Program-made: the position numbers and the translations under genes
Shown: positions 10,433 through 49,326 of the stretch, piece after piece
Position numbering within the stretch: position 1 is the first letter of the stretch
Layout: each line of letters opens with the position of its first letter
The notes under the pieces: model-generated
Told to the model about the DNA's origin: nothing
The model's input: only the letters and a program-made list of their open reading frames with translations
Database searches by the model: none
Assembly (NCBI GenBank): GCA_000991245.1
Contig: LBRD01000003.1
Span: forward strand, 6,734 to 70,733
Direction of reading: 5' to 3'
Length of the DNA stretch: 64,000 bases
Source of the DNA: Parcubacteria group bacterium GW2011_GWC1_36_108
Lineage (GTDB): Bacteria > Patescibacteriota > Minisyncoccia > Moranbacterales > GWC2-37-73

Positions 10433-13147
10433 TTAGTGAATTTCTTTTTCCAGATGGAATCCGTCTTTATTCCAAGTGAAATATGCCCAAGAGCCATTTG
10501 ATTTGCGAAATTCATCGATAATGTAATATTGAATGTTTCCTTGTTTTTCTTCGTGCCAAAGATGAGCTTCGCCGGAAATAGCCACGATTTCTTTTCCACT
10601 TTTTTCCAATAACTCTCTTACTTTGTCTCCATTGACGACATCATAAACTTTTTTTTGCGAGGTAAATTTGAACAATGGATGATCACTGAAGATAAGCACG
10701 CGGGAATGTTGCGTTGCGTTTATATCCGCAGAAAGCCAAGCCAATTCTTTTTCTAATATTTGCCCGCGATCACGAATACTCCATGAGCGGGTAATTTTTC
10801 TTGAATTATACATTTCTTGAAAAATAAAATTGAGAGCTTGTTTTTCTTCCGCGAGAGTTTTTTTCGAGTCAGTGTATTTCTGAGTGTATGTTTTAAATGA
10901 GATTTTGTTTAATTCTGAAAGACGATTTTCGATTAGTGTGCAATAAACATCCTCTTGGCAGGAAAGACCCATTGGTTCTCCTCCAAGAACTGTATCTAAA
11001 ATAATAATATGCAAATTTTTCAAATCAAAAGAATAGAATGTTTCATTTCTTTTGGTTGTTTCCAGCCAGTTTCGGTAGGATTTGACATTGCTTTCTATGT
11101 CATGATCTCCAAGAACAAAATGTGTCGGCAAGGCTGAATTTCTCAAATAATCGGCAACAAAGCGCGCATCCATATCTGCAGTTGTCGAGCAGCTTCTGAG
11201 ACGATGACTTGCATTATCTCCGAGACTGATTATAAAATCAGCTTTTTTTTCTCCACTAAAATCAATAAAAGCTTCAAGTTTTTCAGTTGAAACAGCTTCT
11301 CTTGAGGGACAGTGATCGATGTCTGTTATGATTGCAGCGCGCAGTTCATTATCGGAAATTTTTTTTATGTCTGACACCTTATTAAGGAGCGTTGAATTTA
11401 GGAATAAATCTTTCCATGAATGCATTTTTTCTATTGCTGAAAGTTGGCTCCTTTTTTGCATTGTTGTCTTGATATTGGCGTCATCTTCGATAGCAATTTT
11501 TGGTTTCAAATGCGTAACCTTCATTATCCCGAAATCTTTAATTTCAATAACATCAAAAAAATCAGAAAACTTTTCAGAATCGTTCTTTTTTTTGTTAGCA
11601 CTTAATTGTATTGAAAAATATTCTCCATTCTCACGTGGTTTTTCATTGTTAAATTCTTCAAAATAATTGTAGCCTTTATTTTGAAGAATAATCCAATATG
11701 TTGGTTCATATTCTGATTCTGATGAAATGAAAATTTTCGTGTTTTTGTTTGGAACTTGTTGTTCCATATAATCCGAAATTTTCTGATGTATGAATAGCGG
11801 AGTTCTATAATAATTGGGGAAGACATCTTCAGTTTCAATCTTAACCGCAACTTGCTGAGAATTTTTCAGTTGCCAAAAGCTGTCTGATATTTTTGTTGAA
11901 TTTATTATTACAATTAATAATGTAATCGTAATAATAAGGACAGTGTTGGTAAGTTTTTTTCTGAAAATTATTTTTTCAAATATTAGACCCAGAAGTATGA
12001 ACGCAAGTGGTGCAAGCACAAGATAAAACCTTGGGTATATGTACAATTTGTTTAAGGTTAAGGATATAAAATAAGCACTGCCGATGGATAGCCATAGTGC
12101 TGAAAGTATCAAAAAATCTTTTCTCTCTTCATTCTTTTCTTTTTTAATGTTCCACCCAAGAAGAAAAATGGATGTAATATATAAAAATAGTGCTGATAAT
12201 CTCCAGATGCGATCTTCTTTGCACGTGTTGCATAATATCCCCAGCGAATATCCATTTGGACGACTTGTGTTTATTCTGTCTTCTCCTGTGAGTATGAGAA
12301 AAAATTCTCCGGAATTGTAACGCAGATTCTGCACTATTTTTTCTGAAATATTTTTTTCTTCTGACTCTTCTTTTTCTTTCGAATTGCCTGAAATTTTTTC
12401 AATTAATAATTTTGAATTTGAAAAATCATATTTTAATTCATGCAATATAACAGGGGAATAGATGAGAATTGAAAATAAGACTGCATAAGCCCATGTTTTG
12501 ATGGGGAAGTGCGGTCTTTTTATTAGAAGAAAAATTACATATGCAGGGACAATAATAAAAAGACCGTTGAAATGCAATTGACTTATTATTGAAAGAATTG
12601 TTAATGAAGATATGAAAAAAACATCTCGTTTTTTTTCTTCGGGAGAAATGCTTCTTAGCAGTAAATAAAAGGTTGCTAGAACAAAAAAGGGTAAAACATT
12701 TGGATTCCAGGAAAAGCGAGCATATTGAATCAGATAAAATGAAGTGGCATATAAAGCCAGCAGCGATGCGGAAATTATTCGGGAAAAATAAAGACGCGCA
12801 AAAACAAGGAACAATGGCATAGCAGCAATAGCGAGAATTAAGTTTGGCGTGGCATGACCCTGTGGGGTGTTTCCAAAAATTTTTCCACCAAGATATTCAA
12901 TATAATAATATGCTGGTCCTATGCGCAATTCTTCTGCTCCAGCTCTTGGCCCAAGCAGCTTAAGATTTTCTATTCCATTTTGAATTGCGGGAGATGTTAT
13001 GAGATAATCATCTGTTTGATCGGTTTCAAAATGAATCCAATCGTTGAAATGATAAATTCGTAGAAATGAACCGGCAAGAATGATAAAAACTATGACAATA
13101 AGAAACCATTTTTTCTTCGTTAAGTCTAATATTTTTTTTGGGGTCAT
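10433..13147 (-). CDS. GT-C (ArnT/PMT-like) membrane glycosyltransferase fused to a C-terminal metallophosphoesterase domain
   Basis: The N-terminal ~400 aa are polytopic and paralogous to 15551..17344. The C-terminus has calcineurin-like motifs (DIDHCP, SLGDNASH, VLGDHDIE, IFSDHPLF, ISGEAHLWH). Confidence 0.7.
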   Translation of the reverse strand: MTPKKILDLTKKKWFLIVIVFIILAGSFLRIYHFNDWIHFETDQTDDYLITSPAIQNGIENLKLLGPRAGAEELRIGPAYYYIEYLGGKIFGNTPQGHATPNLILAIAAMPLFLVFARLYFSRIISASLLALYATSFYLIQYARFSWNPNVLPFFVLATFYLLLRSISPEEKKRDVFFISSLTILSIISQLHFNGLFIIVPAYVIFLLIKRPHFPIKTWAYAVLFSILIYSPVILHELKYDFSNSKLLIEKISGNSKEKEESEEKNISEKIVQNLRYNSGEFFLILTGEDRINTSRPNGYSLGILCNTCKEDRIWRLSALFLYITSIFLLGWNIKKEKNEERKDFLILSALWLSIGSAYFISLTLNKLYIYPRFYLVLAPLAFILLGLIFEKIIFRKKLTNTVLIITITLLIVIINSTKISDSFWQLKNSQQVAVKIETEDVFPNYYRTPLFIHQKISDYMEQQVPNKNTKIFISSESEYEPTYWIILQNKGYNYFEEFNNEKPRENGEYFSIQLSANKKKNDSEKFSDFFDVIEIKDFGIMKVTHLKPKIAIEDDANIKTTMQKRSQLSAIEKMHSWKDLFLNSTLLNKVSDIKKISDNELRAAIITDIDHCPSREAVSTEKLEAFIDFSGEKKADFIISLGDNASHRLRSCSTTADMDARFVADYLRNSALPTHFVLGDHDIESNVKSYRNWLETTKRNETFYSFDLKNLHIIILDTVLGGEPMGLSCQEDVYCTLIENRLSELNKISFKTYTQKYTDSKKTLAEEKQALNFIFQEMYNSRKITRSWSIRDRGQILEKELAWLSADINATQHSRVLIFSDHPLFKFTSQKKVYDVVNGDKVRELLEKSGKEIVAISGEAHLWHEEKQGNIQYYIIDEFRKSNGSWAYFTWNKDGFHLEKEIH

Positions 13148-41444: not shown

Positions 41445-42263
41445 TTAAAATGGGCTTTTGATGTTTCTAAGCATTGGATTAGTTACTTTCGTGTATATCT
41501 GTGTTGTTCTTATATTAGCATGTCCAAGCAATTCTTGTACATATCGCACATCAACCCCATTTTCAAGCAGATGAGTGGCAAAAGAATGTCTAAGTGAGTG
41601 AAAAGTGGCTTCTTTTTGAACCTCAGCTTTTTGCAGAGCATTTTCAAAAACTTTTTGTGCGCTACGCTCATCTAATTTTCCTCCGCGATTACTGGCAAAA
41701 ACATAATCATTTAAATCTCTAAGCGCAATCATATTAAGCAATTGTGGTTTCAATTTTTCTGAAATTACACTTATTCTATCCTTGTTTCCTTTAGCTCCTT
41801 TTATATGAATTGTTAATTCGTCTAAATTGATGTCTTTAATCTTTAAATTTATTGCTTCACTGACGCGAAAACCTGCGCCATAGGAAAGGGAAATGAGCAG
41901 CTTATGTTTCGGATTGCTTATGGAATCAATCATTCTTCCAATCTCATCCCTAGAAAGTACTACGGGCAATTTGCTGGCAGTTTTGGCAAATTTGATATCA
42001 ATTTCAATATTATTTTTAAAAACTTCTCTATAAAAGTATTTAATAGCTTGAAGATGCACATTCATCGTCTGTGAGGATTGTCCACGAGCTTGTTTTTCTA
42101 ATAAATATTTCTTAATTACTTCAATTTCCGGTTCGCGCTTAATAATTTTAATGTATTTGAAATATTCATTCAGACAAGACAAATAACTCTCAATTGTCCT
42201 TGGACTGTAATTTCGAAGTTTCAGTTCGTTTTTGATTTTTTCCAGCAACTCTTGGAGATTCAT
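41445..42263 (-). CDS. tyrosine site-specific recombinase (Xer/IntI-like, 272 aa)
   Basis: YSPRTIESY N-terminal SAM-like domain; KLPVVLSRDE; catalytic R (GFRVSE), K (KGNKDR), HSLRHSFATHL and LGHANIRTTQIYTKV (Tyr). There is no long insertion between the K and HxxR regions. Confidence 0.85.
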   Translation of the reverse strand: MNLQELLEKIKNELKLRNYSPRTIESYLSCLNEYFKYIKIIKREPEIEVIKKYLLEKQARGQSSQTMNVHLQAIKYFYREVFKNNIEIDIKFAKTASKLPVVLSRDEIGRMIDSISNPKHKLLISLSYGAGFRVSEAINLKIKDINLDELTIHIKGAKGNKDRISVISEKLKPQLLNMIALRDLNDYVFASNRGGKLDERSAQKVFENALQKAEVQKEATFHSLRHSFATHLLENGVDVRYVQELLGHANIRTTQIYTKVTNPMLRNIKSPF

Positions 42264-42321
42264 AAAAAATATGCTATATTTTATTCATAAATCAGTGATG
42301 GTTGTATTATACTAAAAGTTC

Positions 42322-42384
42322 GCATAACCTGCAACTTTCAACATACTATCAAACACTAAGTTCGTATATAAAGGAGTTATGTGC
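42322..42384 (+). other. attI-like region: GCATAAC (42322-42328) ... GTTATGTGC (42376-42384)
   Basis: Inverted AAC/GTT boxes 113 bp or less from the recombinase start. 42376 is where similarity to the right end of cassette 1 begins. Confidence 0.4.
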
Positions 42385-42489
42385 AATAGCCAGAAATACC
42401 CCATTATCTTTTAGAATTTTTTTTGGCGAAATGCAGGGTCGAATAACTCAAGGTAAAATTAATATTAATTAAATTAAACAACAAACATT

Positions 42490-43110
42490 ATGAAAGAAAT
42501 GTATCAACCATCGCAAGCTGAAATAAAAAAAGCAGAAGATGTCATGACTGAAGAACAAAAACTTGAGAGCATGACGAGAGAAAATGCTGTTCACGCAGGG
42601 GAAGCATCTTTCAGTGATTATGATGAAACAAAAAAAATTAACCCAGAAAAAACCCATAAAATTGAGATAGAACTGCAAGCCACAATTTATAAGGAATTCA
42701 ATGATCGAGTTAAAGAATTAGTTAAATCATATACAGAAAGCCTATCTGCCCTAAAAAGAGAAGCTAACTATGAAGACGACGAGCAGCTTGATGAGATAGA
42801 TAAAAAAATAAATGAATTAACAAAAAAATTATTTGAAGACTTTGGAGAACAGTATATGCGCTTAAGCAAGGTTGTAATAGACACCACAATAACAATATCA
42901 GATTTTGTAATTCATAAAAAAGACATGTTATTACAGCAAGAAGAAGATCAACAAAAAAGACAGGAGTTAGAAGCCAGCATACTTAAAAGCGAAAATGCAA
43001 AAATACAAAGAGCGGAAGCTGTCATAGCAAATCTTGAAAAATATATAAACGATGTTAAAAACAATTTTGAAAAAGGTGCTGAAGAATTAATGAAAGAAAT
43101 AAAGAAATAA
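42490..43110 (+). CDS. cassette 1 ORF: acidic coiled-coil protein, unknown function
   Basis: 206 aa, E/K-rich. Bracketed by inverted repeats 42376-42430 and 43117-43175. Confidence 0.6.
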   Translation: MKEMYQPSQAEIKKAEDVMTEEQKLESMTRENAVHAGEASFSDYDETKKINPEKTHKIEIELQATIYKEFNDRVKELVKSYTESLSALKREANYEDDEQLDEIDKKINELTKKLFEDFGEQYMRLSKVVIDTTITISDFVIHKKDMLLQQEEDQQKRQELEASILKSENAKIQRAEAVIANLEKYINDVKNNFEKGAEELMKEIKK

Positions 43111-43166
43111 GAAAAATTCGCCAAAAAAAATTAAACACAAATAAGGAATGGGTATTTCTAGCTACA

Positions 43167-43364
43167 GCACATAACAGCCCATATCTGGCTACAGGAAATT
43201 GACGCTAGTAAAAACAATATTGAGTGTCAATTTCCCTCCGCCCAAATTTTCATCCCTTGGTTTGATGAAGGTTTAGGCGGAGTGCATTAAAAAAAATATC
43301 AGCCTGTAATTAAAGTTTATCCTGCTAAACGGGATGAAAACTTCAGATATGGGCGACGTTGTGC
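43167..43364 (+). other. attC-like folded site 1
   Basis: GCACATAAC, then CCCATATCTG pairing with CAGATATGGG; hairpin GGAAATTGAC/GTCAATTTCC; CCCAAATT; GTTGTGC. Confidence 0.55.
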
Positions 43365-43527
43365 GAAATAAATTTTTTATCTATACTAATATTAGCGTTT
43401 AGTGATGCTAGTAAGGACAGAAAATTTGATTTTTTAATTATTTTAAGAGGGGTAATATGTGTTTTTCTGCTCTTTGGGGAGCAGAAAAAATTAATTCATT
43501 TGTAATTTATTTTTAAGCAATAAAACT

Positions 43528-44430
43528 ATGAGCATGGAACAACCAAAATTTAATCCACACAATCCTGAATATAAAAAAGTTGAGGATTTACCAAAAGAAG
43601 AACAAGTAAATTATTCTGACGTTGAAGGTGGTTTTGTTCAAAAAGAAGCAGCTGAGTTTTATAAAATAGCGCAGGACATTGAAAGAATTACAGAGCGCGA
43701 AAGTGGCTCAATGAGTGCTGACAAATTCATGATGCTTCTCGCGCAAGATGAGGACACGAAAAGAGAATGGGATGCGCTTACTGGAAAACAAAAGCTCAAT
43801 GTTCTCATGGGAAATCCTAAAAAAGAGGACATGGATTTATCGACTTGGAACACGAATAGGTCTGCGATAGAGAAAACTCTTGAAGAACATCCTGAACTTA
43901 GAGATAACAAGAAGCTTATGCTTAAATTGATTATTTCAGGTACCAGTCAGGCACCAGGGCTTGCTTCTGAAAAAGTGCGTAATGATAAGGGTTACGCTTT
44001 GGAGGCGGTAAAACGAAACGGAATGGCTCTCGGGTATCTTCCAGAGGAGATGCAAGACGATGAAGATGTTGTTATGGCAGCAGTTACTACGCGTGGATTA
44101 GCTCTTAGAGAGGCTTCTCCACGATTGCAGAACAATAGAGAAATTGTTGCTGCAGCAATCACCTCAGAGGATGGAGACTTTGGAGACATAATATATGCCT
44201 CCTCAGATGAGGTAATTGAAAGTTTATTGGATGAAAATAACCCAGCCAATAAGGATATTCTTTTAAAAGCGATGAATAACAAGCATGTCAATGATAATTA
44301 TAAAAGAATTGCCAGCTATAATCCAAATCATCCAGACTACCAGGGTGGGCAGTACGATGAAGTTTTCAAGAGATATGAGCATCTGCACATGCGTGAGAAA
44401 ATAGAGAAAATATTGGGAGAGAATTTATAA
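43528..44430 (+). CDS. cassette 2 ORF: DUF4116-type repeat protein
   Basis: Repeats of the form AVKRNGMALGYLPEEMQDDEDVVMAAVTTRGLALREASPRLQNNREIVAAAI. No SD. Confidence 0.6.
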   Translation: MSMEQPKFNPHNPEYKKVEDLPKEEQVNYSDVEGGFVQKEAAEFYKIAQDIERITERESGSMSADKFMMLLAQDEDTKREWDALTGKQKLNVLMGNPKKEDMDLSTWNTNRSAIEKTLEEHPELRDNKKLMLKLIISGTSQAPGLASEKVRNDKGYALEAVKRNGMALGYLPEEMQDDEDVVMAAVTTRGLALREASPRLQNNREIVAAAITSEDGDFGDIIYASSDEVIESLLDENNPANKDILLKAMNNKHVNDNYKRIASYNPNHPDYQGGQYDEVFKRYEHLHMREKIEKILGENL

Positions 44431-44455
44431 ATATCCAAAAAAATACCAATAAGGA

Positions 44456-44504
44456 GTCTTGAAAAAAGGAATTCACCCCTTACCCCTCTTCCTTTTTTCA
44501 AGAC
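44456..44504 (+). other. 15-bp perfect hairpin with conserved C-rich loop ATTCACCCCTTACCCCTCT
   Basis: GTCTTGAAAAAAGGA / TCCTTTTTTCAAGAC. The loop is complementary to AAGAGGGGTAA at 43445-43455 and 44782-44792. Confidence 0.7.
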
Positions 44505-44573
44505 AAAAATCAAATTTTCTTAGACGCAACACAACGTTTAGTTTAATAAAAAACGAGATAAAAAATTTACATC

Positions 44574-44700
44574 GCACAACAACTCATATCTGGCTCAAGA
44601 AATTGACACTTTAATGTTTCAGATGAAAGTCAATTTCTTTCGACCCAAATTTTTGTGCAATTACATTGCGCAAAAACTTCAGATATGAGTAACGTTAGCT
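44574..44700 (+). other. attC-like folded site 2
   Basis: GCACAAC, then ACTCATATCTG pairing with CAGATATGAGT; GAAATTGAC/GTCAATTTC; CCCAAATT; GTTAGCT. Confidence 0.55.
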
Positions 44701-44853
44701 GAAATATTTTTTTGTCTTTAGTAGTGATTTTTAGATTTGTGATTTAAATAGGGACAGAAAATTTGATTTTTAATTTATTTAAAGAGGGGTAATGGGATAT
44801 TTTTTTGCTCCTGGAATCGCAAAAAAAAGATTTATTTTATTTTTAAAAACAGT

Positions 44854-46431
44854 ATGGAAAAATATTCATTAGAAAATGCCCAGAGCGAAGCTACTGTTAT
44901 TAGAAATGATGCACAAGAGGCAAAACAAAAAAGAGTGCTAGAGGGCGAAAAAAGCGGTGAGCCAAATAGAGATGATTATGACAAAGCCGACAAAGCGATT
45001 GATAGCATTGGCATAAGTAATAGAAAAGAATTTGAGCAAAAACAAGCTGAGATACAAAATAAATATTCAACCGTATTGGAGGGGTCAAAAAATAGCGGTA
45101 ATCAAGAATCTGTAAAATTGCTTCAAGATAACATGAGTCAAGAACTATCTTTTATTGATAGCCAATCAAAGAAATTTAATAGTTTGGAATTTAAAAAGGG
45201 AGAGAAGGCGACGCGTGAATATATTAAAAAAAATAATCTTGATAAATTAGTAGAAGAATTCGGAATTGAGCCAATGAAAGAGGGTTGTCGTCTTTCATTG
45301 GTCATTCCAGCATGCAACGAGGGGCGTGATATTCAAAAAACATTACAATCCTTAGCAGAGCAGAAAGATGAAAATGGTGAAGGTATTAATCCTGATGAAT
45401 TTGAGGTTTTGATTACAGTCAATCAAAAAGAGCAATCAAGCGAGGAAATAAAAAAATCAAATCAACAAACACTTGAAGCAATAGAAGAATTCAAAAGGAA
45501 TAATCCATCTTTAAATATCCATGCTATTTTAAAAGAATTTACGGGCGAGCAAGGTGGTGTTGGTTGGGCAAGAAAATTAGGAAGTGATTTGGTACTTGCA
45601 AGAAGTTTTAGCAGAAATCAAGAATCTGAACGAGAACCGATGTATATTGCAGGAACTGACGCTGATACAATTGTTGGTGAGCAATATGTATCAGAAATTA
45701 TCAAGGCAGCAAATAAGTATGGCGATGCCGCCTATGGCGGTGGTGTTATTTTTGATGAGAATTGGGAAAAAGCATTGGGAAAAAATGCGTCCGACAAGCT
45801 CAGGGTATTCATGGAAGATATGCGTGGATTTCTATTAAAGGCATTAAATGGCGGTTTGCAAGGTGCAAACTTTGCCATACGCGAAGATATCTATGCTCGC
45901 ATGGAAGGAAGCTCAACAAAAGTACATAGCGAAGATGCGGAAAATGATGAACGATTACGAAGTTTGAAAAAAAATGTAACATTTTTAAATTCTGACCATA
46001 TCACTAGCTCTCGTAGGATGATTGGAGAATTCGAAAACTATATTGCTGGAATGCGAGGGCAAAAAATAGACTGGGAAACACGAAACAAGACTTATGGAAA
46101 GTCTGTCCCTACGGGAGAAAAAATTGACTTTACTGAATCCGAGCTTGATGAGGTAATTGCTTACCACAAATTACATAGATCAGATCTAATTATAGACAGT
46201 ATAACTTCGGAAAACGTAAATAATCCAGAGATGGTGCAATTGATTGGAGAAAAATATCATTCTGATTTTAAAGATTTAAAAACTGAAGAATTTAAGACAC
46301 TATTGAATGATAAAAATTTTAGAAAAAAATTACAAATTGAGATAGCATACAATATGTCTAAATTATTTGCATCGAAAATTTCATATACAGAAAAAGATAA
46401 ATTCATCATCGGAATTCCAGAAAAACAATAA
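44854..46431 (+). CDS. cassette 3 ORF: protein with central GT-A (GT2-like) glycosyltransferase fold
   Basis: LSLVIPACNEGRDIQKTLQSL and GTDADTIV (DxD-like). Coiled-coil N-terminus. No SD. Confidence 0.55.
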   Translation: MEKYSLENAQSEATVIRNDAQEAKQKRVLEGEKSGEPNRDDYDKADKAIDSIGISNRKEFEQKQAEIQNKYSTVLEGSKNSGNQESVKLLQDNMSQELSFIDSQSKKFNSLEFKKGEKATREYIKKNNLDKLVEEFGIEPMKEGCRLSLVIPACNEGRDIQKTLQSLAEQKDENGEGINPDEFEVLITVNQKEQSSEEIKKSNQQTLEAIEEFKRNNPSLNIHAILKEFTGEQGGVGWARKLGSDLVLARSFSRNQESEREPMYIAGTDADTIVGEQYVSEIIKAANKYGDAAYGGGVIFDENWEKALGKNASDKLRVFMEDMRGFLLKALNGGLQGANFAIREDIYARMEGSSTKVHSEDAENDERLRSLKKNVTFLNSDHITSSRRMIGEFENYIAGMRGQKIDWETRNKTYGKSVPTGEKIDFTESELDEVIAYHKLHRSDLIIDSITSENVNNPEMVQLIGEKYHSDFKDLKTEEFKTLLNDKNFRKKLQIEIAYNMSKLFASKISYTEKDKFIIGIPEKQ

Positions 46432-46434
46432 GGA

Positions 46435-46484
46435 GTTTTGTTTCAAAAAAATTCACCCCTACCCCTCTTTTTTTGAAACAAAAC
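46435..46484 (+). other. 17-bp perfect hairpin with conserved loop TTCACCCCTACCCCTC
   Basis: GTTTTGTTTCAAAAAAA / TTTTTTTGAAACAAAAC. The stem differs from 44456-44504 but the loop is conserved. Confidence 0.7.
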
Positions 46485-46553
46485 GAAAAATCAAATTTTC
46501 TTAGTAATAAAACAAAGTTTGTATTAATAAAATAGAAGACAAAAAAATACATC

Positions 46554-46743
46554 AGCTAACACGGCATATCTGGTTCAGAAATTTTTCACTTTTATACTTT
46601 TTAACGCCAAGGTTTGAAAAATTTCCTCTCCCAAATTGCGCTGTGATATGGCAAAGTTTAGTGATATAATTAAGGCAGGCAGAAAGTTGAAGTTTTAGCC
46701 AATGAATATGGGCGCAACTTCAGATGATGCCGATACGTTGTCG
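46554..46743 (+). other. attC-like folded site 3
   Basis: AGCTAAC, then GGCATATCTG pairing with CAGATGATGCC (one bulge); GAAATTTTTCA/TGAAAAATTTC; CCCAAATT; GTTGTCG. Confidence 0.5.
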
Positions 46744-46803
46744 GAAATATCAAAAAACAAATTCATTAATATTTTTTTCAAGCCCTTTTGAAATTCAGGT
46801 AAA

Positions 46804-46830
46804 GAAAAAACCGCACAGTATTCTGTGCGG
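46804..46830 (-). terminator. rho-independent terminator for the minus-strand small ORF
   Basis: Minus strand reads CCGCACAG-aata-CTGTGCGG followed by TTTTTT. Confidence 0.7.
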
Positions 46831-46848
46831 TCGTAATTACATTTGTCA

Positions 46849-47019
46849 TTATATCGCCCTCGACATTTCCTGAATTGAAGCCTCGCTTAGTTTGTTGTGT
46901 TCTTTTTCGTCACAAGAAGCTATCAAGTACGTGCACAAGATTATAGTACCACCAAATCCATTGGGAAAATGTTGGGCATGTCTACAGTCATCATCTTCGT
47001 ATGGACAACGCTTTTCCAT
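46849..47019 (-). CDS. cassette 4 ORF: 56-aa Cys/His-rich protein (below track threshold)
   Basis: AAGGAGGTGATTAAT-ATG strong SD. MEKRCPYEDDDCRHAQHFPNGFGGTIILCTYLIASCDEKEHNKLSEASIQEMSRAI. Has its own terminator. Confidence 0.5.
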   Translation of the reverse strand: MEKRCPYEDDDCRHAQHFPNGFGGTIILCTYLIASCDEKEHNKLSEASIQEMSRAI

Positions 47020-47092
47020 ATTAATCACCTCCTTGTTTAATGTGCTAGTATACTATTATTAGATAAATTATCAATATTGTCAAGCGGGGAAA

Positions 47093-47124
47093 AACTTCTC
47101 ATACTTAGATATGTTGTGCGAAAT
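47093..47124 (+). other. degenerate terminal site (AACTTC...TAGATAT-GTTGTGCGAAAT)
   Basis: Shares GTTGTGCGAAAT with 43358-43369 and retains a decayed AACTTCAGATATG box. Confidence 0.4.
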
Positions 47125-47212
47125 TTTTTAAAAATGCTGTGGATAAGTTACGGTGTACGGTTTTTAATTATAATGATACAATATCACTATAATTAAATAA
47201 AGAATAAAACTT

Positions 47213-48040
47213 ATGCAAAATCCAGAAAGTCACATTGCCATTTTCAAGGGAAAAACTATCAGAAAAATCATTTTTCAAAAGGAATGGTGGTTTTCTGTTG
47301 TGGATATTATACAGGTCATAACGGACAGTCCAACTCCAAGGCAATATTGGGGCAAGGTTAAGCAGCGTGAATTTACTGATCTTCAGTTGTCCCCAATTTG
47401 GGTACAACTGAAATTGGAAGCTTCTGATGGCAAAAAATATGAAACAGATTGTGCAAATACAGAAGGAATGCTTCGTATTATTCAATCAATACCATCTCCT
47501 AGGGTTGAACCATTGAAACGTTGGCTAGCAAAGGTTGGTTATGAGCGCATTCAAGAGGTAGAAAACCCAGAACTTGCCAGCAAACGGACAAGATTATTAT
47601 ATAAACTAAAAGGTTATCCTGAAGATTGGATTGAAATGCGTATGCGTGGTATTGCAATTCGCGAAGAATTGACAGATGAATGGCAAAAAAGAGGTGCAAA
47701 ATATAAACAAGATTACGAAATTTTAACTGCAGAAATATCTGAGGCCACATTTGGACTAAAACCAAATGAATATAAAAAAGTAAAAAGTCTGAAGCGTGAA
47801 AATCTTCGTGACCACATGGATGACTTCGAATTAATTTTGACTATGCTGGGCGAGCGAACCACAAAAGAAATTCATAAAACCAAAGATTCCAAAGGTATAC
47901 AAAGATTGAAAGATGATGCTAGACTTGGCGGAGAAGTAGCAGGAACAGCTAGAAAACAAATTGAAAGAAGAATTGGCAGACCAGTGATTTCAGAAAAGAA
48001 TTTTCTGAAATCTAACAATAGGAAGAAAATTAAAAAATAG
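47213..48040 (+). CDS. Bro-N domain protein (DinD/antirepressor-like)
   Basis: IAIFKGKTIRKIIFQKEWWFSVVDIIQVITDS N-terminal Bro-N pattern. DinD-like C-terminal half. Confidence 0.65.
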   Translation: MQNPESHIAIFKGKTIRKIIFQKEWWFSVVDIIQVITDSPTPRQYWGKVKQREFTDLQLSPIWVQLKLEASDGKKYETDCANTEGMLRIIQSIPSPRVEPLKRWLAKVGYERIQEVENPELASKRTRLLYKLKGYPEDWIEMRMRGIAIREELTDEWQKRGAKYKQDYEILTAEISEATFGLKPNEYKKVKSLKRENLRDHMDDFELILTMLGERTTKEIHKTKDSKGIQRLKDDARLGGEVAGTARKQIERRIGRPVISEKNFLKSNNRKKIKK

Positions 48041-48077
48041 AATATTTTCAAAAATAATAATAAGCAATCTTAATCTT

Positions 48078-48539
48078 ATGAAATATAAACACACTCAAAT
48101 TGGTTATCTGATGTTAGTTGTTACGTTGGCTGTGGCGGTGCTTTTCGCACGGATTTATATTATGGCTGCTGCCGAGCCACCTTCGGCTGATTCGGGCACA
48201 AATCTTCTTGTTACTGCTGTAATGTTATTAATCCTGTCTGTTCTTGCTTCCTTCGGGTCACTTCAAGTAATTATTGATGAAGAAAATTTAAGAATAAAAT
48301 TTGGCTACGGTATTTTTAGAAAAAAGTTTTCGCTTGATGATATAATTTCTGCTAAAACAGTGAAGAATCATTGGTATTATGGATGGGGAATAAAGATGTG
48401 GCTCTGGCCAAAAATGTGGATTTACAACGTTTCCGGTTTTGATGCGGTTGAAATAAAAATGAAGAATGGTAAAATGTATAGAATAGGCACGGATGAACCT
48501 GGAAAATTAGAACAAGCAATTTTGCAATCAATTAAATAA
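48078..48539 (+). CDS. membrane protein, two TM segments plus a small soluble domain
   Basis: 153 aa. Hydrophobic N-terminus. Confidence 0.5.
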   Translation: MKYKHTQIGYLMLVVTLAVAVLFARIYIMAAAEPPSADSGTNLLVTAVMLLILSVLASFGSLQVIIDEENLRIKFGYGIFRKKFSLDDIISAKTVKNHWYYGWGIKMWLWPKMWIYNVSGFDAVEIKMKNGKMYRIGTDEPGKLEQAILQSIK

Positions 48540-48574
48540 TTAAGACTAGGTAAAAAAATAAAAAAACAAAAACT

Positions 48575-48781
48575 ATGTTTAAACATCACAAAAAGAAAAA
48601 CCCATTCTTGTATCATTTAATATCAGGAATTGGGCTTATTATTTTTTGGCGAGGAATTTGGGGGATTATGGATCTGTATCTCTTTCCCGGAAATCCAACG
48701 CTGAGTCATTCTTTTGCAATTACACTTGGGCTTGTTATTTTATATTTCAATGATTTTTCAATATCAGAGTTGATCAAATAA
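48575..48781 (+). CDS. small membrane protein
   Basis: 68 aa, two hydrophobic segments. Confidence 0.45.
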   Translation: MFKHHKKKNPFLYHLISGIGLIIFWRGIWGIMDLYLFPGNPTLSHSFAITLGLVILYFNDFSISELIK

Positions 48782-49064
48782 GTGGCTCGGTTTTGACTTT
48801 CGGCGCATCTGATTTCTTGCCAATAATTTTGAAGAAGTAATTCCACTTTTGTCCTGTTTTGCAAAGCTCTTTGGTGTCGTTCATTGCGCGCTCAACGATT
48901 TGTTTGTTGTATTGCTTGCAGACACGAAAGATGGAACCGCGTTTGTCATTGGGAACATCAAAATCTTTGATAATTTTAAGTGCCAGCTCTTGCCACTGAT
49001 AAGCAGGAGCTTTTTGAACAACTCTTTTTTTCATTAATTCTCCAAAGGTTTTTAAATCTTTCAT
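48774..49064 (-). CDS. hypothetical protein
   Basis: 96 aa, basic, no recognisable motif. Confidence 0.45.
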   Translation of the reverse strand: MKDLKTFGELMKKRVVQKAPAYQWQELALKIIKDFDVPNDKRGSIFRVCKQYNKQIVERAMNDTKELCKTGQKWNYFFKIIGKKSDAPKVKTEPLI

Positions 49065-49101
49065 ATGTTTTTGCGGGGATTATCTTAATAATTTTTTATT
49101 G

Positions 49102-49238
49102 TTAGGACTTACGCACTTTCTCAACGATTTCTTTTTTGGCACGCTTTTGGATAAATACTCACTATCCAAAAACTCAAAGAGTCGCTGTCGCCAACAATTG
49201 GCCAAAAAAGAAATGTTTCGAAATGCGTAACTTCTGAA
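49102..49238 (+). mobile_element. TIR element D, full copy
   Basis: TTAGGACTTACGCACTT...AAATGCGTAACTTCTGAA. Track ORF 49080..49274 lies inside it. Confidence 0.8.
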
Positions 49239-49326
49239 TTTGTTTATTTTACCAGTAGGGGATGGTAAAAGCAAAGATGTTATTCAAAAAGGTTGATTTA
49301 ACGCTAAAAGCTGTTATAATAGGGCA

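Follow-up and report, generated by a model that had tools for sequence, protein, structure and literature searches.

Background

In classical integrons, every cassette is headed by the end of its own recombination site, and bracketing of a gene by complementary ends would therefore, taken alone, be expected of any integron-type array. The pdif sites of Acinetobacter offer another modular arrangement: they are 28-bp double-stranded sites, lie on plasmids and are served by XerC plus XerD, and we know of no pdif modules with covarying stems, extended arms or an adjacent dedicated recombinase. Here, we analyze a 64,000-nucleotide (nt) stretch, hereafter “the window,” of contig LBRD01000003.1 (positions 6,734 to 70,733 of the forward strand, assembly GCA_000991245.1) from Parcubacteria group bacterium GW2011_GWC1_36_108, a groundwater bacterium of the Moranbacteria group in the candidate phyla radiation (CPR). 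Beside a tyrosine recombinase gene in this window stand three open reading frames (ORFs), each enclosed by its own complementary arms and followed by a structured site. We put at roughly three in four the probability that the locus is a chromosomal integron-like gene-capture platform, apparently of an undescribed variant that is widespread in CPR bacteria.

In the integron field, recombination of folded single-stranded attC sites is held to have been enabled by acquisition of the I2 helix (PMC7790495), and a chicken-and-egg problem has been named, in which either the attC sites came before the domain that reads them or the reverse (PMC4792948). If the CPR arrays are active, they would offer a natural I2-less system for a direct test of this question, and a major radiation of uncultivated bacteria with tiny genomes would join the hosts of integron-type gene capture. 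In the literature outside subscription journals, we found no description of such arrays or of integrons in CPR/Patescibacteria, although an earlier account is possible; the papers on IntegronFinder 2.0 and on archaeal integrons (PMC9668308) make no mention of CPR arrays.

Results

Each ORF in the window is bracketed by its own complementary arms

The three plus-strand ORFs of the array point away from the recombinase gene, and the units are separated by three non-coding elements that are related to one another and run from AAC to GTT. We took arm pairs from an inverted-repeat search of positions 42200-47300 and extended them by gapped alignment. An earlier note on this DNA, made from the letters alone, had proposed that each ORF lies between complementary arms; the three pairs are indeed among the longest inverted repeats of the region, and all of the coordinates that it gave for them hold. 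The cores match over 26 nt in cassette 1 (42376-42401 with 43150-43175; 23/26, 88%) and over 25 nt in cassettes 2 (43358-43382 with 44556-44580) and 3 (44694-44718 with 46536-46560), with 23/25 (92%) in each of the latter two. Gapped alignment agrees with the proposed pairing of 42376-42430 with 43117-43175 over about 59 nt, and in cassettes 2 and 3 the 5' untranslated region (UTR) can pair almost in full with the 3' UTR, over ~110-117 nt. Chance cannot account for this complementarity: stretches of 25 nt with at least 23 complementary positions occur twice in the observed sequence and not once in 30 dinucleotide-preserving shuffles, the best of which reach 19-22.

The pairing is specific to the two ends of one cassette. 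Local-alignment scores are 56, 45 and 67 for cognate arms versus 19-33 for non-cognate pairs, and the two arms around an intergenic site agree at no more than 10-14 of 30 positions, which bears out the claim that they are the less complementary. The fixed mismatch described for the window is likewise present in three of three cassettes, where AA on the left arm (nt 10-11 counted from the G of GTT) faces CA on the right arm. The contention that the arms bracket an ORF rather than form one intergenic palindrome is true of the outer stem, which pairs across the ORF, and has to be given up for the inner L box, which pairs within the site. The features are collected in Table 1.

Table 1. Features of the recombinase-array locus (positions are those of the window)
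Feature	Position	Strand	Description
Tyrosine recombinase	41445..42263	-	272 amino acids (aa); divergent from array; directly 3' of def and fmt
attI-like double-strand site	42358..42387	+	L-type arm AGTTCGTATAT, 6-7 nt centre AAAGGA(G), R arm TTATGTGCAAT
Cassette 1 left arm	42376..42430	+	R' half and extension; AA mismatch 42385-42386
Cassette 1 ORF	42490..43110	+	206 aa; no family assignment found
Cassette 1 right arm	43117..43175	+	R'' half and extension, ends AAC; CA mismatch 43165-43166
Site 1 (AAC..GTT)	43173..43360	+	188 nt; 1-nt spacer, L'' stem GCCCATATCTGG, L' stem CAGATATGGGC, 3-nt spacer GAC
Cassette 2 left arm	43358..43470	+	Core 43358-43382, weaker pairing to ~43470; AA 43367-43368
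Cassette 2 ORF	43528..44430	+	300 aa; DUF4116 repeats
Cassette 2 right arm	44452..44580	+	Core 44556-44580; local 16-bp hairpin 44456-44504; CA 44570-44571
Site 2	44578..44696	+	119 nt
Cassette 3 left arm	44694..44810	+	Core 44694-44718; AA 44703-44704
Cassette 3 ORF	44854..46431	+	525 aa; family-2 glycosyltransferase (GT2) domain
Cassette 3 right arm	46432..46560	+	Core 46536-46560; local 17-bp hairpin 46435-46484; CA 46550-46551
Site 3	46558..46739	+	182 nt
Orphan left arm	46737..46760	+	GTTGTCGGAAATATC...; end of recognizable array
Orphan 3' half-site	47091..47124	+	AAAACTTCTCATACTTAGATAT followed by GTTGTGCGAAAT; no 5' partner; half-site hidden Markov model (HMM) E = 7.9e-3

The arms of cassettes 2 and 3 have a content of their own. 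Their 5' arms (~120-150 nt) and 3' arms (~125 nt) are 75-85% identical to arms in six genomes (L069, L074, L076, L090, L091 and L101), where the similar-armed cassettes hold unrelated ORFs of 194-331 aa; the shared regions in the window are 43358-43527 with 44431-44580 and 44694-44853 with 46432-46560. Conservation reaches nearly to the start codon and restarts at AAGGAGTT near the stop codon, so that the arms look like a common “chassis” receiving different ORFs. The 5' arm (43445-43516; 44782-44880) carries a Shine-Dalgarno-like (SD-like) AAGAGGGGTAAT and then a short upstream ORF, which in cassette 2 has 20 codons including the stop (43457-43516), together with a local hairpin. The 16-17 bp hairpin of the 3' arm (44456-44504; 46435-46484) shows compensatory changes between genomes, and its conserved loop (ATTCACCCCTnACCCCTCT, ACCCCTCT) is complementary to the SD-like motif.

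Pairing of this extent might instead serve the transcript, for example in RNase III processing of one polycistronic transcript from the array, mRNA stability or translational control, the symmetry of the DNA being a by-product. That the pairing spans whole UTRs to the ORF edges is in keeping with this idea, as is the complementarity between AAGAGGGGTAAT in the 5' arm and the loop ACCCCTCT in the 3' arm. The pairing, however, begins exactly at the invariant GTT/AAC exchange point described below, and units that have no ORF share the same ends. Mismatches show no G.U-compatible excess on the coding strand (21 G.T versus 26 A.C), and Rfam returned no family for the whole window at the gathering threshold and none for 42200-47300 even at E <= 1. 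We consider a function at the RNA level highly improbable as the explanation of the arms.

Pairing across ORFs and the AA/CA mismatch are conserved in related loci

To compare the window with its relatives, we scanned one genome per species and obtained 49 loci, nearly all from Patescibacteria, with recombinases 55-82% identical to that of the window. Boundaries were located with regular expressions at first and then with half-site HMMs, the boundary models being trained on the same family. At least one site was present in 24 of the 28 related loci that had at least 1.5 kb on the array side. From the window and ~20 related Patescibacteria loci, we then compared 40 consecutive, unselected GTT-to-AAC pairs, which bracket an ORF, with 37 AAC-to-GTT pairs, which bracket a site.

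The mismatch is conserved, as had been predicted should the note be right. The right arm ends in ...ACATCnnnnAAC in 40/40 pairs, giving TG at the mismatch positions once it is reverse-complemented, and the left arm reads GTTnnnnGAAAT, with AA, in 38/40; the two left-arm exceptions are register shifts from a one-base insertion after GTT (GTTGTGGCGAAAT) and not substitutions at positions 10-11. The AA-opposite-CA mismatch is invariant. Complementarity also follows the ORF in the relatives: positions 13-25 match at 10.3 of 13 for ORF-bracketing versus 4.6 of 13 for site-bracketing pairs (Mann-Whitney p = 8.7e-9), and the four variable bases after GTT are fully matched in 24/40 versus 1/37. Most of the GTT-to-AAC pairs that do not match include a missed degenerate boundary. 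When 18 circle junctions were reconstructed, 94% of cells were paired, a figure biased upward by preselection of these cassettes for at least 21/30 matching arm positions; 21 of 25 pairs had changed on both sides, and the pairing was reached by none of 500 shuffles, with slid registers at 35-51%.

Three further observations concern the distribution of such loci. A scan of metagenome contigs with the exact pattern TACAN7AACAN3CATATCTGG found 63 contigs, almost all with single matches and from unrelated environments, and these we set aside as chance matches. Seventeen of the 49 contigs with a related recombinase (L067-L115) end within 250 nt of the start codon, that is, at the array start, which would fit assembly breaks from repeats or strain heterogeneity in arrays. 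Two different recombinase-plus-array loci (L074 and L077, recombinases ~76% and 74% identical to that of the window) come from the same metagenome-assembled genome (MAG; UBA4824), which is either one genome with two platforms or a mixed bin.

The sites between cassettes fold on an inner stem

Read 5' to 3', a site starts with ACATC, four free bases and AAC, followed by a single A; the L'' strand then has four free bases, (A/G)TAT, two free bases and GG. Local hairpins make up a variable middle region, in which CCCAAATT is conserved (in site 1, this region between the L strands is branched and contains the same motif); the region sets the site length, which ranges over 66-563 nt. The 3' part consists of AACTTC with the complementary stem strand, a 3-4 nt spacer ending in AC, and GTT with four free bases and GAAAT. 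The sites are imperfect palindromes with R and L boxes and a spacer, their structure and not their sequence is conserved, and AAC and GTT are invariant. The inner L stem has ~13 bp; the spacer is unpaired and asymmetric (1 nt versus 3-4 nt), and conserved G/T bulges between the R and L boxes were not identified.

The two stems covary in different frames, the L stem within a site and the R stem across the ORF. Within sites, 156 of 162 variable L-stem positions pair (shuffle mean 83, maximum 104), with 16 different 4-nt and 5 different 2-nt cores, and complementarity changes from site-bracketing to ORF-bracketing somewhere from the 3' spacer to the fourth base after GTT. Relative to the same sites as they stand in the array, reconstructed circle junctions gain 13-17 kcal/mol in folding stability; of their two strands, the bottom one folds better by 2-3 kcal/mol, since its mismatch is a T.T beside a G.T wobble.

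Among 27 sites, the sole one with 0/4 core pairs is a hybrid in L083 (reverse complement, 11722-11840), in which the 5' L core ACTA is unpaired with the 3' core GCCG, the commonest type; it could come from exchange inside a site.

An attI-like site adjoins an I2-less recombinase

The recombinase matches Pfam Phage_integrase (1.9e-41) and Phage_int_SAM_4, and its catalytic motifs are legible in the translation. It passes the NCBIfam model NF040815, “site-specific tyrosine recombinase/integron integrase” (XerA model; 224.5, cutoff 220), and stays under the cutoffs of TIGR02249 IntI (212.5, cutoff 265) and PRK15417 (132, cutoff 435). Its best match in the Protein Data Bank is VchIntIA (2a3v), aligned in two pieces, with 12 residues of the query (184-195) in place of 55 of IntI4 (186-240); in VchIntIA, that stretch holds the I2 helix and the residues that contact extrahelical bases. 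Judged from these matches, the enzyme is closest to IntI and XerA and lacks the domain specific to IntI, the I2 helix around patch III. Its family is very large: at E <= 1e-60 it counts at least 4523 protein clusters, whose members are all ~272-280 aa long and come from across Patescibacteria; the source databases name them XerD or “site-specific tyrosine recombinase/integron integrase.” Viral contigs searched for close relatives of the recombinase gave none, and a tRNA/tmRNA scan gave no match. In a scan for a Pc-type promoter, sigma-70-like matches at 42253-42313 were weak and their count was not above shuffles; promoter and terminator counts in general were not above shuffles either, and cassette promoters cannot be claimed.

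Cassette 1 begins at the GTT at 42376, inside the attI-like site. The consensus of this site, nAnTTCGnATATAAAnGA followed at the junction by GTTnnnnGAAAT, stands beside the recombinase gene in 23 loci, and the junction (alternatively written TTCGnATATAAAnGA followed by GTTnnnnGAAAT) lies ~96-113 nt from the recombinase start codon. On this evidence, the locus would have what an integron has at this place, an attI adjoining the integrase gene with the first cassette starting there. The layout of 11 + 6/7 + 11 agrees with that of 28-30 bp Xer sites (two 11-bp arms around a 6-8 bp centre), and the 3' half of each cassette site is laid out in the same way but with a longer, variable centre. The two arms resemble the XerC arm and the XerD arm of dif in E. 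coli, a resemblance that serves as a lead and not as a test.

A dif-like site beside a single Xer-like gene could also mean that the recombinase is a housekeeping CPR Xer enzyme, that the site is its dimer-resolution site, and that hairpin elements of the CTX-phage kind have piled up there. A family of this breadth and conservation would suit a housekeeping role, the hairpin site does mimic an Xer site, and in a tyrosine-recombinase survey the Xer-related enzymes of candidate phyla make up a “Cand” subgroup, discussed among possible housekeeping substitutes (PMC8138268). Such a site should lie at the terminus. We rejected this hypothesis on GC skew: in the window as in 12 related loci, the skew runs through the locus without a change of sign, which places the locus away from the replication terminus. 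In addition, one MAG holds two recombinase-plus-array loci, and the genomic context of the recombinase varies between genomes. Elements exploiting a dimer-resolution site are, in our judgment, a very unlikely account of the array.

Repeated and shifted units point to exchange between G and TT

The note had reasoned that the pattern is expected if units recombine at the GTT; boundaries of repeat units, an end of homology and altered triplets all point there. Site 3 with the preceding 3' arm is 82% identical to a site in L101, and the homology stops at the GTT at 46737. In L090, a complete Wolfebacteria genome, a 175-nt unit without an ORF occurs three times in one array at 100% identity, each copy beginning exactly at GTT and ending before the next G, so that R module and L module are taken together. 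In L145-L148, the cassettes after a GC-rich mini-cassette begin ATTnnnnGAAAT (A, then TTnnnnGAAAT), with right arms still ending in AAC. The first base of the triplet goes with the upstream unit and the next four with the downstream cassette, which places the probable crossover between G and TT, as on the R' boxes of integrons.

Units also differ between arrays. A 93-aa cassette is common to L070 and L082 at 88-89% identity with unrelated flanks. Among four contigs with an identical recombinase (P0088), a ~1.6-kb segment holding one cassette is present in L146-L148 and absent from L145. The gene tables for P0074 and P0039 show mostly truncations and not clear cassette differences. The cassette proteins are diverse, with only two related pairs among 38, and the three of the window are found in 0 of the 49 related loci.

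In L090 (reverse complement, 10915-13100), the 175-nt unit is GC-rich, an “empty” 48-nt cassette consists of two arms only (GTTGGACGAAATGCCAT...ATGGCACATCGTCCAAC), and the loop of a 563-nt site carries a reverse-strand ORF. In L145-L148 (reverse complement, first ~6 kb), ORF cassettes and GC-rich mini-cassettes (GTTATGCCGAAAT...TTTTCGGCATAAT...ACTTCGCTTATTCCGAAGCCA) follow each other in alternation; the arms of the latter pair with no AA/CA mismatch, and the internal length of these mini-cassettes varies between strains.

Arms that start with GTT and end with AAC look like terminal inverted repeats, and each ORF segment might accordingly be a small transposon inserted in a repeated target. The units carry no transposase, however, and taking them out leaves only concatenated loop segments, which make no plausible target. 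The first base of the GTT belongs to the upstream unit, and the repeated unit takes in the downstream site. No empty sites differing by exactly GTT..AAC plus a target duplication were seen. Of the explanations considered, we give this one the least credence.

The array might also be built of double-strand modules like the pdif modules of Acinetobacter, with the half-site pairs acting as ordinary Xer-type sites in alternating orientation and the ORF and loop segments as independent modules moved by two-strand exchange; cognate arms would then match because each half-site stays attached to its own module. The half-site pairs do alternate in orientation, each half resembles an 11 + 6-9 + 11 Xer site, the attI-like site is dif-like, and the recombinase is Xer-like with no I2. 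The ORF within the 563-nt loop in L090 would be a loop module with a gene, and the cassette common to L070 and L082 is shared without its downstream site. Co-inheritance, however, leaves unexplained why variable bases are shared in inverted form over 25-115 nt and why the L cores always pair, both of which selection for folding explains. The centres vary in sequence and length (7-9 nt), which would block two-strand exchange between double-strand partners, and the 175-nt repeated unit joins an R module to an L module. The array also lies on a chromosome beside one recombinase gene, and its stems covary, which the pdif model does not require. We judge modules of this kind unlikely.

The array fades out downstream

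Beyond site 3, a search up to 49600 gave no cognate right arm for either of two orphan left arms (46737 and 47113). Between the orphan left arm and the orphan 3' half-site lies a reverse-oriented gene of 59 aa (46849-47028) with a strong promoter match, TTGACA-17-AATAAT (47083-47055), and a terminator at 46832-46809. From the array end to LigT (47213-49326) follow a Bro-N protein, a 153-aa protein and small ORFs with no counterpart in the syntenic L089, where the interval from recombinase to LigT is ~4.3 kb and has other content; this segment may represent older decayed cassettes or another insertion.

Discussion

A proposed mechanism

The reading of the locus as an integron-like platform draws on the site architecture, the two covariation patterns, the exchange point, and the repeated, absent and transposed units, all of them seen in the sequences and in their comparison. 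In this platform, a tyrosine recombinase of the Xer/IntI type would stand beside a double-strand, dif-like, attI-like site followed by three cassettes, each made of one ORF and a structured site working like an integron attC; we infer that the adjacent recombinase is the enzyme acting on them. Cassettes would be at least transiently circular after excision, and in the circle the arms, the AAC and GTT triplets and the L stem would join in one long hairpin, a reconstituted Xer-type site of two arms around an imperfect centre. One strand, folded as the substrate, would be exchanged between G and TT, the partner being either the double-strand attI-like site or a further cassette site; the product would then be resolved by replication, in the manner of integrons and CTX phage (PMC4792948). 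The incoming circle would thereby be opened inside its own R stem, so that in the integrated cassette the 3' strand of the stem (TTnnnnGAAAT...) comes first and the 5' strand (...ACATCnnnnAAC), the L stem and the loop come last. Each ORF would be bracketed by its own complementary ends, and the arms of one site would be unrelated, because integration splits the R stem. For cassette 2, the predicted circle junction is ...CAGATATGAGTAACG joined to TTGTGCGAAATAAATTTTTTATC, and its loss is predicted to leave ...CAGATATGGGCGACG joined to TTAGCTGAAATATTTTTTTG.

The R stem, which starts at AAC/GTT, has nine paired positions, then the mismatch at 10-11, and continues for 25 to ~115 nt. The mismatch lies at arm positions 9-10 of the 11-bp R arm, on the outer side of the R box and not between the R and L boxes, where the extrahelical bases of attC lie. 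Both of its bases are invariant and its shape depends on the strand, being A.A plus C.A on the top strand and T.T plus G.T on the bottom strand. The earlier suggestion that it marks one strand, as the extrahelical bases of attC do, is plausible; it may be read by the adjacent recombinase or otherwise set strand or orientation. As a mark read by the enzyme, it could replace the system of I2 and extrahelical bases. Alternatively, R' and R'' might need different sequences, for instance to prevent R''-L'' from acting as a double-strand site, or the mismatch might be a break that limits stem stability.

Shared arms around unrelated ORFs, together with the empty 48-nt and 175-nt cassettes, hint at how cassettes are made and bear on the unsolved question of cassette origin. 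A broader proposal, which we hold tentatively and rate somewhat below an even chance, would be that gene capture without I2 operates across the CPR on folded hairpins that mimic dif, with strand or orientation set by the A.A/C.A mismatch and with cassettes built on conserved palindromic chassis, either as a surviving pre-I2 “proto-integron” or as an independent invention.

Several points weigh against reading the locus as an integron-like platform. The recombinase is without the I2 that integron integrases use for folded attC. The R stem of a site in the array has just 3 + 2 conserved pairs, and excision through in-array site folding therefore looks unfavourable. In L070 and L082, the downstream site did not travel with the shared cassette, and the breakpoints of the L145 indel fall in a direct repeat of 200 nt, a repeated mini-cassette, so that homologous recombination could explain this strain difference. 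Exact-protein look-ups with the recombinase and the three cassette proteins found the window array identical in at least 24 assemblies, which gives no sign of recent activity in this strain, and no circular form, excision junction or empty junction was observed. Finally, most of the comparative sequences are MAGs, in which repeats can be misassembled.

Comparison with known systems

Archaeal integrons (Ghaly et al. 2022, PMC9668308) resemble the CPR arrays in that they too are arrays from MAGs of uncultivated lineages; unlike the CPR arrays, they have IntIs with the additional domain and attCs that fold canonically as a single strand, and they were found by standard integron tools. The pdif modules of Acinetobacter plasmids share with the array the bounding of modules by inversely oriented Xer-type sites with flanking arms of the same type (PMC7399989).

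Integration of CTX phage by Xer is similar in its I2-less, Xer-type enzyme, in a folded hairpin that recreates an Xer site of two arms and an imperfect centre, and in its dif-like double-strand partner (PMC4792948 and PMC3442271). In contrast to that system, the target in the array is not at the terminus, its elements are single-gene cassettes in order beside the recombinase gene rather than phages, and its stem has a conserved mismatch and an asymmetric bulge.

Classical integrons, such as class 1 integrons and the VchIntIA/VCR system of Vibrio cholerae, share with the CPR locus a divergent tyrosine recombinase adjoining an attI-type site and a co-oriented array of mostly single-ORF cassettes with unrelated, mostly unknown functions. 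Their sites, too, are imperfect palindromes with conserved AAC...GTT triplets and R and L boxes; a spacer stays unpaired, the terminal structure varies, and it is structure and not sequence that is conserved. Exchange is between G and TT, and a cassette starts with the end of its own site (PMC4792948 for the integron facts). The Patescibacteria locus differs from them in a recombinase that is below the IntI family cutoff, in an R stem that runs past the 7-bp R box, in an invariant outer mismatch that replaces or supplements extrahelical bases between the boxes, and in free bases, not RRRY, at the four positions following GTT. What appears new with respect to integrons is thus an I2-less recombinase, an R-stem extension of 25-115 nt, the invariant outer AA/CA mismatch, sites and arms that resemble Xer half-sites, and the host group, Patescibacteria.

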